Shown here piece by piece: positions 46,747-51,933 of a stretch of DNA of 64,000 nt (the first letter of the stretch is position 1; the number at the start of each line of letters is the position of its first letter). Source of the DNA: a bacterium (GTDB lineage: Bacteria > UBA8248); contig CBDATS010000004.1 of the NCBI GenBank assembly GCA_965200245.1, forward strand, positions 1,056,001 to 1,120,000. Direction: 5' to 3'. The notes below the pieces were generated by a model. That model saw nothing but the letters and a program-made list of their open reading frames with translations, was not told where the DNA came from and made no database searches. The position numbers and the translations under genes are program-made.

Positions 46747-47727
46747 CTATTTCTTCATCGTCATGTCTTTGATGAGTTGCGTATAGGCGTCGTAATTCGG
46801 TTTTCTGGTCTTCTCGTAGTCGCCACCGCTCATGAACTGCACGCCTTCGCCGATACTGCGCATGAAGCGCTTGAAGGACTTGTTCTTCGTGAGCTTCACG
46901 AAGGCCTCCCGCAGGGTTTTCAGCCTGTCGGCGGGCGTCTTGGAAGGCGCAAAGAAGACGCGATCCATCTTGAAGCCCACTCCCTTGTAGCCGAGTTCCT
47001 CCGTGGTGGGGACATCCTTGAAATCCTTGTCCTTCGATAGGCGCTTGTTGCCTGTGAGCGCGAGCACGGTGACCTTCCCGGCCTTTTTGTGGGGGCGAAG
47101 CTGGGTCGGGAAGGCGATGCCCACATCGTCCTGGCCCGAGAGGACGGCGCGCAGCGCCGGACCGCCACCTTTGTGCGGGATGAAATTCACCTTGATGCCC
47201 GCAGCGCGCACGAACTGCATGGAGGGCACGTGACCGGCACCCCAGACACCGCTGTGGCCCCAGTTGACCTTGCCGGGGTTTTTCTTGGCGTGCGCGACGA
47301 ATTCCTTCATGGATTTCCACGGCCTGTCTGCCAGGGAGAAGAACACCGGCTGCGCGTGGTTGATCTTGGCGACGGCCGAAAGGTCGCGCATCGTGTTGAA
47401 GGGCACCTTGCGCGTTTGCGGCACGAGTTGGTCGAAGCCGTTGTGGCTGAATAACAGGGTGTAGCCGTCCGCCTTGGCCTTGGCGACGAAACCGGTGCCC
47501 TTCATGCCCGCGCCGCCTGGCACGAGTTTCACGACCATGGGCTGGCCAAGGATGTCGGCGATGATGCTGGTGATGCCACGCGCGTGGAGGTCGTGGCTGC
47601 CGCCCGCACTCACCGGCAGGACAAGCGTGATGGGCCGATCCGGGTAGGCCGCCGTGCTCGCGGCAGGCGCGCCCAGCGAGACGACGAGGCCCAGGATGGC
47701 CAGGATGACGAAGAAGCGTCTTTTCAT
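46747..47727 (-). CDS. tctC: Tripartite tricarboxylate transporter substrate-binding protein (Bug/TctC)
   Basis: Signal peptide; YPDRPITLVLP...GG..D, KADGYTLL, IPHKGGG, DVPT..ELG. Confidence 0.92.
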   Translation of the reverse strand: MKRRFFVILAILGLVVSLGAPAASTAAYPDRPITLVLPVSAGGSHDLHARGITSIIADILGQPMVVKLVPGGAGMKGTGFVAKAKADGYTLLFSHNGFDQLVPQTRKVPFNTMRDLSAVAKINHAQPVFFSLADRPWKSMKEFVAHAKKNPGKVNWGHSGVWGAGHVPSMQFVRAAGIKVNFIPHKGGGPALRAVLSGQDDVGIAFPTQLRPHKKAGKVTVLALTGNKRLSKDKDFKDVPTTEELGYKGVGFKMDRVFFAPSKTPADRLKTLREAFVKLTKNKSFKRFMRSIGEGVQFMSGGDYEKTRKPNYDAYTQLIKDMTMKK

Positions 47728-47753
47728 GATGGTCTCCTTTGATGAACGTGCCC

Positions 47754-49259
47754 TCATGAGACGGCGTGCCCCCTGGCCCGCCGCCACATCGGGCGAAAAA
47801 TGAGGTAAACGATCCATGCCAGCGCCGCTACCAGGAAAGCGGACGCTATCGGCCTTTCGAAAAACAGGTACGACAACGGGGCGCCCTTCGCGTACAGCAT
47901 CGACTGGCTCAGGCGGTATTCTATCGGCTCGGCCAGCACGAAGGCGATGATGAGAGGCGCCAGATCGAACTTGAACTTCCTTAGAATATAGGCGCATACG
48001 CCGATGATGACCATCAGTATCACGTCGGTGTTCGCTCCCGTAGAGAGCGTGCCCACGAAAGCGAGCGCCACGATGACGGGGATGAGATACGCCTTTTTGA
48101 ACTGAATGGCTCGGGCGAAAGGCTTGAGCAGGACGTAGCCCAGGAAGAAGAACAGCACGTTCGCCAGCACCATCGTGAGAATGAGCGCGTACATGAGCGC
48201 GCCCTGTTCCTGGAATATCTGGGGTCCGGGCCGCATGCCGTGGGCCACGAACGCGCCGAGCAGGATGGCCGTCACGTTGTCTCCCGGAATGCCGAGCGTC
48301 AGCAAGGGAACCAGCGTGGGACCGTTCACGGCGTTGTTGGCGGCCTCGGGTGCTGCGATGCCGTCGAGTTCGCCCTTGCCGAAGTTCTCGGGCGTCTTCG
48401 AGGCACGCTTCGCCGCACTGTAGCCGATGAAGGCGGCCACCACCTGTCCCACCCCCGGCACCATACCGATGCCCGTTCCAATGGCGGTCGAGCGCAAGAT
48501 GGAACGGATCGACGCCTTGAACTCGCGCCAGCGCAGACGTTCTCCCGTCCTGGAGAGGTCCACGTGTTCGCCGATGAAGCGCACCGTGCGCGATTCGACC
48601 GCCTCGAGTATTTCCGGCATCGCGAAGATGCCGATGGCCAGCGGGATGAGAGGAATGCCCCCGCTCAGGGCTTCCAGGCCGAACGTCATGCGTGTGGCGC
48701 CGGTGGTGGCGTCGGTGCCGATGAAGCCCAACCCCATGCCGATGCAGGCGGCGATGGCTCCCTTGAGCCCTGAATCGCTCGAGACGCTCGCAATGAGCAC
48801 GAGCGAAAAGATGATGACGGCGAACACCTCGGGCGGACCGATGAGCAGCGTGATGATGGCGATGGGGCCGATCAGCGCCAAGGTGAAGACGTCGGACACC
48901 GTATCGGCGATGGTGGAAGAGAACAGCGCCATCTCGAGCGCCTTTCGCCCCTCGCCCTTGCGGGTGAGCGCGGGACCGTCGAAGGTCGTGGCAATGGATG
49001 CGCCCGTTCCCGGAATACCGACCAGAATCGCCGGGATGCTGCCCCCGTAGATGCCGCCCTTGTAGATGCCAATCAGAAACGGGATGCCGAGCATGGGTTC
49101 GAGCTTGAAGGAAATCGGCAGGAGGACCGACATGGCGAGAATGGTGGTGAGACCCGGCATCGCGCCCACGAACATGCCGATGGTCAATCCTGCGCAAATG
49201 TAGAGATAGGTGTCCACGCGCATCAAGAGAGCGAAGGCCTGAAGGAAAGCGTCGAGCAA
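47754..49259 (-). CDS. tctA: Tripartite tricarboxylate transporter large permease
   Basis: GAMPGL, GGSIPAIL.GIPG, PEAANNA, LTLGIPG. Confidence 0.95.
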   Translation of the reverse strand: MLDAFLQAFALLMRVDTYLYICAGLTIGMFVGAMPGLTTILAMSVLLPISFKLEPMLGIPFLIGIYKGGIYGGSIPAILVGIPGTGASIATTFDGPALTRKGEGRKALEMALFSSTIADTVSDVFTLALIGPIAIITLLIGPPEVFAVIIFSLVLIASVSSDSGLKGAIAACIGMGLGFIGTDATTGATRMTFGLEALSGGIPLIPLAIGIFAMPEILEAVESRTVRFIGEHVDLSRTGERLRWREFKASIRSILRSTAIGTGIGMVPGVGQVVAAFIGYSAAKRASKTPENFGKGELDGIAAPEAANNAVNGPTLVPLLTLGIPGDNVTAILLGAFVAHGMRPGPQIFQEQGALMYALILTMVLANVLFFFLGYVLLKPFARAIQFKKAYLIPVIVALAFVGTLSTGANTDVILMVIIGVCAYILRKFKFDLAPLIIAFVLAEPIEYRLSQSMLYAKGAPLSYLFFERPIASAFLVAALAWIVYLIFRPMWRRARGHAVS

Positions 49260-49271
49260 GACAGGGCCTCC

Positions 49272-49850
49272 CTATTTTCCCAGGAATATGCCGGACAGAA
49301 ACTTCATGATCACATCCTCGACCACGGCGATGGCCTCGTAATCGCTCCTCGGCAGCGAGATGAGCAACATCCTCTCGAAGACGAAGCGCACGACGATGGG
49401 CATCAGGATGGAGACGGGGGCGACGATCCATATTTGCCGTATACCCAGATACCAGATGACCACGCCTGCCATCAAAAGCGTCGACAGACCGTAGCCAAGT
49501 GCAGAGACCAGAAGGGAATAGGCGGTGATGACGGCGATCATCAGCACCCCGCGCCGGAAGCGTTCCGCTTCGCCCGGATCCTCGGCGGACTGGACGTGGC
49601 GTGCCCTTTGCCAGGCACCGATCAGGTAGAACCCGCACAGGACGGCGAGCACGGCGAAGGCGAGTCTCGGGAAGAAAACGGGCGTGAGGCGCAGGAAATC
49701 CTGCGCAGAGGATATGCCACCCGACGCGATGAAGTAGGGCATGAAGATCGCGAACCCCGCCGCGAGGAGCGTCATCGCCGCGGCCAGGCAAATCTCCATT
49801 CGCAGCATCGCGGGGCTTGGCGTGTCCGCCGATTCGTTGTCCGAAGACAT
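49272..49850 (-). CDS. tctB: Tripartite tricarboxylate transporter small permease
   Basis: P..FPR motif, 4-5 TM helices, F...L...LP; upstream of tctA. Confidence 0.85.
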   Translation of the reverse strand: MSSDNESADTPSPAMLRMEICLAAAMTLLAAGFAIFMPYFIASGGISSAQDFLRLTPVFFPRLAFAVLAVLCGFYLIGAWQRARHVQSAEDPGEAERFRRGVLMIAVITAYSLLVSALGYGLSTLLMAGVVIWYLGIRQIWIVAPVSILMPIVVRFVFERMLLISLPRSDYEAIAVVEDVIMKFLSGIFLGK

Positions 49851-50040
49851 GGACCGTCCTATCGTATGAGGTCGTATTGTTCCCGCCGACCCGGGAGCGT
49901 TCCCCATCGTCTGATGAAGTGGTTTCGTTCCAGGGATTCTCGTATTATTCACCAAATGGATTGCAGGGGCAAACTTTCATCCCATTCGTTCACGAGCGCG
50001 CACCGCGTGCGCAAACCGAAGTTTCCAGGAGAGACATTTC

Positions 50041-50424
50041 ATGAAAATCATCAATTCCATGAGTGTGGACAAGGACAACGTCTACGAGCCTCCCTATTCC
50101 ATCATGTGGGGAGTGAACGACGAGACGACAGACACGAAGGTCATGACCATGCAGCGCACCATCATCCCCCCCGGCGGGAAGAACAAGATGCACACCCACA
50201 CGTGCGATGCGGTATTTTATGTGAACAAGGGGCCGATATACGTTTATTGTGGAGATCCGGCGAATCCCGAGAAGCATCTGGTCGAGGCAGGGCATTTCTG
50301 CTACGCGCCCGCCGGCGAACCGCACGGACAGGAGAACCCGAGCCAAACGGAACCCGCCGAACTCATCGCCACCTACGGGAACTGCTCCCACCAGGACAAG
50401 GCGGGCACGACCTTCGTGGAGTAG
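50041..50424 (+). CDS. Cupin-domain protein
   Basis: PPGGKNKMHTH...FYVNKG...G...YAPAGEPH; GGAG RBS. Confidence 0.85.
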   Translation: MKIINSMSVDKDNVYEPPYSIMWGVNDETTDTKVMTMQRTIIPPGGKNKMHTHTCDAVFYVNKGPIYVYCGDPANPEKHLVEAGHFCYAPAGEPHGQENPSQTEPAELIATYGNCSHQDKAGTTFVE

Positions 50425-50459: not shown

Positions 50460-51200
50460 ATGGATCGAGGAATATGGGCGTCCTGGTACGATCTGCCCGA
50501 AGACAGAAGAGACGACTACTGCGCCTGGCTGCACGGGTGTCACCTGCCCGCCATACGGCAGCGGGCGGGCTTTCTCTGGGCGGCGCACTATGAAGTCACA
50601 GGCGGCGGGGCGCAGATGGACGAGGTGAAGAACACAGCCCTCACCTATGCGACGCCCGATACGCTTCCCGGCGGCACGCAGTACGTGCTGCTGTTCGGGG
50701 CGGTCTCGCCACACGTCTTTTTCGACCCCACGCTGGCGGATCTCGCGAAAGGACACGATGAAGAGACGAGGGCCATGCTGGGCCTTCGCGAGGGGTATCG
50801 CGAGTGCATATTCAGCGAGGAAACGCGCGTGGACGGTCCCTCCGTGAACTCAAGAGGTCCCGGCATCACGCCCGGACCTGCAATCCAGATGGGGCAGTTT
50901 CTCGCGCAGGATGCGGAGGCGGAACACGACCTCGGCGCCTGGTACGCGCAGTATCGCCTGAAATTCATGGAACAGATGCCCGGCTGTATCGGCACCCGGA
51001 AGCTGCTCTCCGCCGCAGGCTGGGCCAAGCACTCGATTCTGTATGAGTTCACCTCGATCGAGGCGAGGGAGGAAGGTTTCCAGAAGCACGAGAGTCTTTC
51101 GCTCGATGAGAGCGGCTGGTCGGGCCGGGTGGTGAGAACGCTTGTCCACGCACCCGGCAGCCCCAGTGTGGCCCGTCGCCTCTGGCCGCCCGTGAACTGA
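50460..51200 (+). CDS. Hypothetical protein with tandem dimeric alpha/beta-barrel (EthD/DUF4286-like) domains
   Basis: WLHGCHLP...AGF and WYAQYRL..MEQMPGC...LYE repeats; similar architecture to 14846..15550. Confidence 0.65.
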   Translation: MDRGIWASWYDLPEDRRDDYCAWLHGCHLPAIRQRAGFLWAAHYEVTGGGAQMDEVKNTALTYATPDTLPGGTQYVLLFGAVSPHVFFDPTLADLAKGHDEETRAMLGLREGYRECIFSEETRVDGPSVNSRGPGITPGPAIQMGQFLAQDAEAEHDLGAWYAQYRLKFMEQMPGCIGTRKLLSAAGWAKHSILYEFTSIEAREEGFQKHESLSLDESGWSGRVVRTLVHAPGSPSVARRLWPPVN

Positions 51201-51231
51201 ACCTTGAAACCCGGATCAGGAGGAAATCCCG

Positions 51232-51933
51232 ATGGCGCAACTACCGATTCTGAGTGATGAGGAGGCCGGCCCCGAGGCCGCCGTGGTGTTCGACGCGAGC
51301 CGCAAGATGTTCGGACGCGTGGCGAACGCCATCCGCGTGAGTTCGGCCAGCCCGAGAATGCTTCAGCCGCTTTTCGGTTTTCTGATCTCGCTGTGCCGGG
51401 CGGAAATCACCGATGTGCTGGACGCAAGGACAAAGGCGCTGCTCATTCTCAAGACCTCGATGGAAAACGGGTGCAAGTACTGAACGGCGCACAACGTCAC
51501 GTTCGGTCGAGCGTGCGGGCTGTCGGATGCGCAAATCGACGCCCTGAGGGACGACGCCTATCAGGAATCGGACCTGTTCACGGACCCGGAGAAGGCGGTC
51601 ATCGCCTGGGCCTATCACCTGACGAAATACACTTTCGCCAGGCACCCCGAAGCTCTCGAGAATATGAAGAAGCATTTCGATCACGCCCAGATCGTCGAGG
51701 CGACGCTGGTGTCTGGCTATTTCAACATGTGGAACCGTTTCACCGACGCGCTCGAGACCGATCTCGAGGGCGATGACCAGATGACCCTGTTTACCAAATC
51801 CGCCGTGATCGACAGGGATGTCTTCGCGGAGTTCATGAACGAGTGCTGGTGGGCGCAAGAGGACACAGCCAGGGAGGAGAAAAAACACTCTCCGCTTCCG
51901 CCGGTTCAGGAGCGTGATTTGCCAAGTTCCTGA
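51232..51933 (+). CDS. AhpD/carboxymuconolactone-decarboxylase family selenoprotein (CKYU), 233 aa
   Basis: ORFs 51232..51483 and 51664..51933 share a frame separated only by TGA 51481; NGCKY*TAH matches the family CxYC..H motif; downstream QIVEAT..SGYFNMWNRF. Confidence 0.85.
51498..51515 (+). promoter_or_regulatory. Putative bacterial SECIS hairpin
   Basis: CACGTTC-GGTC-GAGCGTG stem-loop; loop 22-25 nt after the UGA. Confidence 0.7.

Follow-up and report, generated by a model that had tools for sequence, protein, structure and literature searches.

The gene described here encodes, in our reading, a 233-residue selenocysteine (Sec) oxidoreductase of the AhpD/CMD fold, and lies at 51232-51933 on the forward strand of a 64,000-nucleotide stretch of bacterial DNA (the window; positions 1,056,001 to 1,120,000 of contig CBDATS010000004.1, assembly GCA_965200245.1, GTDB lineage UBA8248). 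We put the probability that this is a functional gene, with the active site Cys81-Lys-Tyr-Sec84-x-x-His87, at about 0.88. The computational evidence consists of a conserved in-frame UGA, a Sec/Cys pair between the protein and its homologues, selection on a hairpin at the RNA level, the Sec machinery of the genome and the protein fold; from these we infer selenium incorporation itself, the chemistry and the substrate. The first-pass annotation of the window had proposed a Sec enzyme of 233 residues at this place. This call is correct, being supported by the conserved UGA, the substitution rates on either side of it, the Cys found at the matching column of homologues, the tests of the selenocysteine insertion sequence (SECIS) and the Sec machinery. 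Its novelty was overstated, since CxxU AhpD-like and CMD selenoproteins are long-known families; the gene represents a new orthologue group within a known kind of selenoprotein. Its elements are as follows.

51219-51224, forward strand: Shine-Dalgarno-like GGAGGA, 7 nucleotides 5' of the ATG, read from the sequence.

51232-51933, forward strand: coding sequence of the 233-residue AhpD/CMD-like selenoprotein, a single open frame when TGA is read as U, with its ATG at 51232 and its terminal stop TGA at 51931-51933.

51472-51474, forward strand: codon TGC of Cys81, the first residue of CxxU, in a column at least 90% conserved in a 62-sequence alignment.

51481-51483, forward strand: the in-frame UGA, read as Sec84, at the second position of the CxxC-type motif.

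51490-51492, forward strand: codon CAC of His87 in the CxxUxxH motif; CxYCxxH recurs in database homologues and in the debrominase Bmp8.

51498-51515, forward strand: SECIS hairpin, with 5' arm CACGTTC (51498-51504), loop GGTC (51505-51508) and 3' arm GAGCGTG (51509-51515).

The frame has one internal stop, the TGA of codon 84, which stands within SMENGCKY-U-TAHNVTFGRACGL and the motif GCKY-U-TAHN. The table 11 list of open reading frames (ORFs) breaks the gene in two, at 51232-51483 (83 residues) and 51664-51933 (89 residues), and the earlier description of one frame, split in the ORF track and interrupted by TGA at 51481 only, was exact. That the codon is TGA rather than TGC or TGT was checked in contigs assembled from three public runs, and all three agree: contigs from X2 and X4 cover 51481 without a variant, and a 429-nucleotide contig from the RNA library X6 (51188-51616) likewise has TGA. 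X2 and X4 come from two separate studies, their run kind being guessed or unknown, and the study of X4 is shared with X1, a possible source of the DNA. The parts of the stretch left uncovered by the RNA-library contigs of X6 and X7 are uninformative either way. For the searches that follow, the Pfam, NCBIfam, genome, representative and first PDB searches used a query with one extra C-terminal residue, while the exact 233-residue form was used for the 62-sequence alignment, the AlphaFold2 (AF2) model and the second PDB search.

Among 41 genomes searched, the source genome has an orthologue, and so do 19 of the 22 others in its genus, with 82-90% protein identity and one in-frame TGA each; the remaining three genomes, whose completeness is 79-94%, gave paralogue-level matches only. 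Every one of the 20 genus loci has the TGA as its codon 84, with no other breaks or frameshifts before the terminal stop, which is itself TGA in 19 loci and TAG in one. The in-frame TGA is also kept in three more distant relatives: L067 (71% identity; a Candidatus Tectomicrobia metagenome-assembled genome (MAG) by title), L068 (67%; titled an uncultured Nitrospinaceae MAG) and L070 (55%; another genus of the same family). Against the window copy, the mean ratio of nonsynonymous to synonymous substitution rates (dN/dS) is 0.054 upstream of the UGA (codons 1-83) and 0.131 downstream of it (codons 85-205). The latter value indicates purifying selection past the UGA, and hence that the downstream part is translated, which leaves next to no room for a pseudogene or an untranslated tail. 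A conserved in-frame UGA followed by purifying selection is one mark of a selenoprotein gene, and both are found here.

The residue opposite Sec84 in other proteins is Cys. An exhaustive HMMER search of 1.84 billion representatives returned 1590 proteins at E <= 0.001, of which the best 150 were examined. Column 84 is covered by 122 of these and holds Cys in 102; Ser stands there in 8, Glu in 4 and Thr in 2, Leu, Gly, Asp, Trp and Met occur once each, and one sequence has a gap. N-x-C-x-Y-C-x-x-H is the usual reading of the Cys forms, and a Cys-form paralogue (GCHFC, C2:330869-331417) is present in the same genome. Position 84 is the sole invariant column of the 62-sequence alignment, which comprises 52 near-full-length representatives, the window protein and nine paralogues. 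The homologue check thus gave Cys in the database and TGA throughout the genus. Among the same best 150, eight are fragments with their C-terminus at or just before residue 83 (seven exactly at 83), 17 start past residue 84 and three could not be classified; a word-index protein search gave three matches only, all fragments of 134-177 residues. The fragments cut at 83 or starting after 84 show how gene callers treat the Sec forms, and match the earlier expectation that standard pipelines would split the gene.

The assignment of the protein to the AhpD/CMD family, with the UGA at the second Cys of a CxxC..H motif, is borne out by Pfam, by the fold and by the Cys at column 84. CMD (PF02627) is the only Pfam family passed (31.8 bits against a cut-off of 23). 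The highest NCBIfam scores belong to (seleno)protein models from the same superfamily, none at its cut-off, and none of the ten paralogues tested reached an NCBIfam equivalog cut-off, the short domain model ahpD_dom being passed by some. The AF2 model is all-alpha with a predicted local distance difference test score (pLDDT) of 94.6, and its helix 82-94 begins at the CxxU motif. The best Foldseek matches were 6k40 (D. radiodurans alkyl hydroperoxide reductase), 6ohi (Bmp8) and 2gmy (Atu0492), followed by 2oyo, 2prr (peroxidase-related) and 7xw1 (P. aeruginosa AhpD), with target-normalised template modelling (TM) scores of 0.79-0.87 for the best six. The PDB sequence search agrees with Foldseek and aligns NGCxYC to NGCKYU. 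The M. tuberculosis-type AhpD structures 1knc and 1gu9 match only at E values of 0.5-0.6 and TM scores of 0.43-0.63.

The hairpin beyond the UGA was found exactly as the first-pass annotation had drawn it, CACGTTC and GAGCGTG forming seven pairs, one of them a U-G wobble, around a GGUC loop 22-25 nucleotides past the A of the UGA. The bacterial SECIS (bSECIS) model, as given in the Fig. 2 legend of a 2026 review (PMC13188914), has an apical loop of 3-9 nucleotides, a stem of 4-16 base pairs, a distance of 16-37 nucleotides from UGA to loop and a minimum free energy (MFE) of -7.5 kcal/mol or lower, with a G among the first two loop nucleotides and, as a rule, G or U after it. With its GGUC loop, 7 base pairs, spacing of 21 nucleotides and -8.6 kcal/mol as a lone hairpin, the window element lies within all four limits. 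It is the MFE structure when the first 12 nucleotides are excluded from the fold, an exclusion that assumes ribosome cover. An Rfam scan of 51300-51700 at E values up to 10 gave two chance-level matches and no SECIS family; it is uninformative, because no bacterial SECIS match was seen for any model.

The weight of the SECIS case is carried by comparative tests, and this comparative evidence is strong. In the same genome tblastn found ten TGA-containing paralogues (31-36% identical, one 19%) and one Cys form. The apical loop among the ten is GGUC at the identical distance in eight, GGCC in one, and GGC shifted by about one base in the most distant. In their alignment 80% of the cells of the 7-bp helix are paired, compared with 63.1% in column shuffles (0 of 500 reach the observed value) and 28.6-47.1% when the helix is slid; the covariation score is 0.527 against 0.270 in shuffles (again 0 of 500), and both sides change in five of the seven pairs. 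The loop-closing pair is C-G in five paralogues, U-A in four and unpaired in one. The synonymous third base of a Leu/Phe/Val codon tracks the choice of Arg (CGR) or Gln (CAA) two codons on.

Because the hairpin lies in conserved codons, each peptide was recoded synonymously as a control, with 1000 recodings per peptide at the codon usage of the genome. For the window gene, 4.9% of recodings reach the hairpin energy (P = 0.049) and 2.9% reach seven pairs (P = 0.029). Summed over the ten paralogues, the observed 55 pairs compare with 35.4 +/- 3.2 after recoding (0 of 1000 reach it), and the summed energy of -63.3 with -33.7 +/- 9.1 (P = 0.003). The check for a bacterial SECIS therefore comes out in favour of one both by the model limits and by covariation and recoding. 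Among the orthologues the sequence from the UGA to about +38 is nearly invariant, and the sole stem change, CGA to CGG, shared by L067, L068 and five of the 20 genus loci, turns a U-A into a U-G and keeps the pair. The 13-codon window of least synonymous diversity starts at codon 83 (0.158, with the rest of the gene averaging 0.495). At the same place L071, from another family of the same class, has GGAGCUC / GGUC / GGGCUCU.

The genome holds a complete set of Sec genes, all above curated cut-offs: selA (572.7 bits against 267.9) and selB (391.9 against 242.25) on C4, the window's own 1.54-Mb contig, and selD (338.6 against 125; C8:72779-73741, reverse strand) and a tRNA-Sec (75.9 against 47) with anticodon tca by ARAGORN, the sole tca tRNA among 49. 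The selD gene has an in-frame TGA of its own (GG-U-GSK), and a GG-loop hairpin lies 17 nucleotides past that UGA. Two tRNA-Ser genes in the window (gct and tga; 1105-1196 and 13045-13130, reverse strand) score 39.8-39.9 bits on the tRNA-Sec model, below the gathering score. A 'tRNA-Pyl' (cta) called by ARAGORN at C8:91646-91736, forward strand, 91 nucleotides long and with a G-U-rich acceptor stem, is probably false; the best PylS match has 22.2 bits against a cut-off of 178.

Several observations weigh against a functional Sec enzyme. Of 5999 TGA triplets sampled at random from the genome, 247 (4.1%) pass a strict no-bulge bSECIS test, and at that background a single site is no more than suggestive. 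The unconstrained MFE fold of 51475-51545 favours another pairing that includes the UGA itself (z = -0.08 against shuffles), and enforcing the hairpin costs 0.8 kcal/mol (-18.3 against -19.1 free). Five of the ten paralogue sites fail the strict test, because their stems carry bulges or mismatches, and individually five of the ten do not beat their recoded sequences on no-bulge energy. A window starting at codon 18 is nearly as low in synonymous diversity (0.173). On the protein side, the score of 40 bits on TIGR01926 falls short of the cut-off of 81.8 (paralogues score 30-75 bits), as does that of 50.2 bits on the equivalog model NF053654 (cut-off 310); the equivalog model NF041238 gave 24.4 bits against 175. 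The selD and tRNA-Sec genes lie on a different contig (C8) from the window, and the MAG has an estimated contamination of 8.11%, which is why the location of selA and selB on the window's own contig matters. The RNA-library contigs of X6 are no proof of transcription.

One other account of these data is that the UGA is read without selenium, whether by readthrough with a near-cognate Trp or Cys tRNA or by a lineage-wide code in which TGA is a sense codon, and that the hairpin is a by-product of the conserved L-G-R/Q-A peptide. The apical loop is indeed written in a conserved Gly codon and the stem in conserved residues, and our case is built from sequence. We nevertheless consider this account improbable. 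Only tRNA-Sec reads UGA in this genome and TGA is the terminal stop of this very gene, as of 19 of the 20 genus loci, so that a reassigned code is unlikely; the selA, selB and selD set is complete, and the homologous residue is Cys, the usual counterpart of Sec. As for the hairpin, far fewer pairs form when these peptides are recoded with synonymous codons.

Termination at the UGA, giving an 83-residue product followed by a separate gene or by untranslated sequence, is the standard reading of the ORF track. It is very improbable, as the first ORF past the UGA with an in-frame ATG, GTG or TTG begins only at 51664, so that 60 conserved codons would lack a start. Both halves are needed for the AhpD fold, a single domain in the AF2 model, and full-length Cys homologues align across the site. 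The split into 83- and 89-residue ORFs, and the occurrence of such fragments in databases, could reflect a pseudogene: what was once a CxxC AhpD-like gene, in which a nonsense mutation created the TGA and the downstream part is now decaying. We give this hardly any credence: the TGA is kept in every genus locus and in the three distant relatives, no frameshifts or further stops accompany it, the downstream dN/dS is low, and the arrangement recurs in eleven further CxxU genes of this genome. An assembly or sequencing error concealing a TGC or TGT, for which no evidence was found, can practically be dismissed in view of the contigs from X2, X4 (two studies) and X6 and of the TGA in 19 other genus assemblies.

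If the gene is decoded with Sec, SelB carrying Sec-tRNA(Sec) would bind the GGUC-looped hairpin, which begins 14 nucleotides past the UGA, and its delivery of Sec to the ribosome would compete with release factor 2. If the enzyme works as Cys-type AhpD-like enzymes do, the attacking nucleophile would be the selenolate of Sec84 at the helix N-terminus, and it could attack a peroxide, a partner protein at its sulfenic acid or disulfide, or some other electrophile. Cys81 would then resolve the intermediate as a selenenylsulfide, to be reduced by a cellular thiol reductant. M. tuberculosis AhpD uses the second motif Cys as nucleophile and the first as resolving residue, and Sec at the second position fits this arrangement. 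The window contains no AhpC-type gene adjacent to the Sec gene; there are 13 AhpC-TSA matches elsewhere in the genome.

Directly upstream of the Sec gene are two genes in the same direction.

50041-50424, forward strand: cupin-domain gene (Pfam Cupin_2, 45.2 bits), the first of a conserved three-gene cluster.

50460-51200, forward strand: gene for a 246-residue protein without a family match, directly upstream of the Sec gene and co-directional with it.

The gaps are 35 nucleotides between the cupin and 246-residue genes and 31 nucleotides between the latter and the Sec gene, and the three are probably co-transcribed. In all 16 related loci, two distant ones among them, both genes stand upstream of the Sec gene; these loci are not independent, because many belong to the same genomes as in the 41-genome search. 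The 246-residue protein has no Pfam or NCBIfam match, its Atlas matches are hypothetical clusters only, with EthD/DUF4286 leads at a score of 0.90, and its AF2 model (pLDDT 40.6, from a nine-sequence alignment) is unusable. Downstream of the Sec gene lie convergent ABC-transporter genes. Further upstream, at 46747-49955 on the opposite strand, the window has genes of a tripartite tricarboxylate transporter, with TctB at 49272-49955 and the TctC domain as the last 274 residues of an over-long ORF of 1014 residues.

The conserved trio of cupin, 246-residue protein and Sec-AhpD suggests a dedicated function. One could imagine that the orthologue group performs the Sec-dependent reductive step of a dedicated small-molecule pathway together with the cupin and the 246-residue protein, rather than general peroxide scavenging, for example, in a sponge-associated bacterium, the reductive dehalogenation of halogenated aromatics in the manner of Bmp8. 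We regard this as a long shot; were it true, the Sec-dependent deiodinases would have a bacterial analogue with the AhpD fold.

The Sec gene is one of many of its kind in this genome. Of the 24 Pfam CMD matches, 13 are free of stops, ten have one TGA and one has a TAG. Two of those with TGA are new with respect to tblastn, C4:91071-91307 (NACEY-U-IDSH) and C4:815883-816062 (NCQP-U), bringing the CxxU CMD-type genes to 12 (ten by tblastn and these two). The TGA positions of further CxxU genes are given here.

C4:461532, C8:206107, C8:277206, C5:510536, C5:686864, C5:15369, C5:563219, C2:111036 and C15:128667: in-frame TGA of further CxxU genes, all outside the window.

The CMD match with a TAG (C5:429978-430208, reverse strand) has it upstream of the domain, most likely in sequence before the true start. 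The genomes of the genus have 7-13 matches to the query each, every match listed carrying at least one in-frame TGA, and there are 136 further matches beyond those listed. AhpC-TSA (PF00578) matches in the source genome contain an in-frame TGA in seven of 13 cases, one of them two TGAs; two of the TGA-containing AhpC-TSA genes adjoin each other on C8 (C8:307696-308064 and C8:308351-308734).

Selenoproteins of this kind have been recorded repeatedly. A 2005 study of the Sargasso Sea described 27 AhpD-like (COG2128) and 4 CMD selenoprotein sequences of the CxxU type (PMC1088965), and in the Global Ocean Sampling (GOS) survey of 2008 AhpD-like and CMD were among the most abundant families, with 299 sequences ('AhpD-like 1') and 70 ('AhpD-like 2') (PMC2398784). 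The 2026 review describes AhpD-like (TIGR01926), CMD-like (PF02627) and AhpD-related (NF041238) CxxU selenoproteins (PMC13188914), and BSepDB has a page for the AhpD-like family (PMC13326102). According to Table 2 of the BSepDB paper, three MAGs of the GTDB phylum UBA8248 are in the top ten bacteria by number of selenoprotein genes (54, 50 and 48), and at NCBI these same MAGs are placed in Nitrospinota, Nitrospinaceae or Nitrospinae (PMC13326102). The relatives of the window bear the same kind of NCBI labels as these selenoprotein-rich MAGs, the likeness being one of label alone. In a literature search 'UBA8248' and 'selenoprotein' occurred together in the BSepDB paper only (PMC13326102), and a search on selenoproteins in sponge symbionts gave nothing relevant among the 12 listed of 4,505 matches.

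What this gene adds is an orthologue group that lies below all the NCBIfam (seleno)protein equivalog cut-offs tested, and the record of a genome in which CxxU AhpD/CMD-type genes number at least 12, SelD has the Sec form and seven Prx-type matches have an in-frame TGA. Our knowledge of Sec decoding and of the AhpD family is unchanged by it. It does show that a true selenoprotein gene which ordinary gene callers would split can be recognised by reading the raw sequence, and for annotation of this lineage it means that redox genes split by TGA are to be treated as selenoproteins and not as pseudogenes. The Gly codon that forms the SECIS apex is also conserved by the Cys homologues. As a further long shot, related to the small-molecule pathway above, this may have made the family 'SECIS-ready', which, if true, could explain its radiation into 12 CxxU genes per genome.

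The E. coli fdhF SECIS element holds GGUC in its loop. Like it, the window element is a hairpin that follows the UGA directly and has GGU within a small apical loop, but the stem sequence differs and no bulged U was identified in the window hairpin. Compared with the AhpD-like selenoproteins (COG2128/TIGR01926; Zhang, Gladyshev), the window protein shares the CxxU motif, the superfamily, a bSECIS right after the UGA and widespread Cys homologues; it differs in reaching only about half the TIGR01926 cut-off (40 of 81.8 bits) and in a C-terminal extension of about 50 residues that is only partly common to its paralogues. With the CMD selenoproteins (PF02627, 'AhpD-like 2') it has CxxU and Pfam CMD in common. 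NF053654 (GroundWater_YciW, 'YciW-related (seleno)protein') and NF041238 (AhpD_rel_CFYUT) belong to the same superfamily, and the scores on both are far below the cut-offs. The Cys-type AhpD-like structures (PA0269/AhpD 2o4d, 2ijc and 7xw1; 6k40; 2gmy) match with E values of about 3e-15 and target TM scores of 0.84-0.87, but these enzymes use Cys and not Sec, those of the PA0269 type are shorter, at 145-165 residues, and CxxCxxxH is their spacing in the alignment. The tetrabromopyrrole debrominase Bmp8 (6ohi/6ohj), the second-best structural match, aligns over residues 13-180 (E = 4.7e-6) with C-x-Y-C-x-x-H in common; it is 17-18% identical to the window protein and it, too, uses Cys where the window protein is predicted to use Sec.

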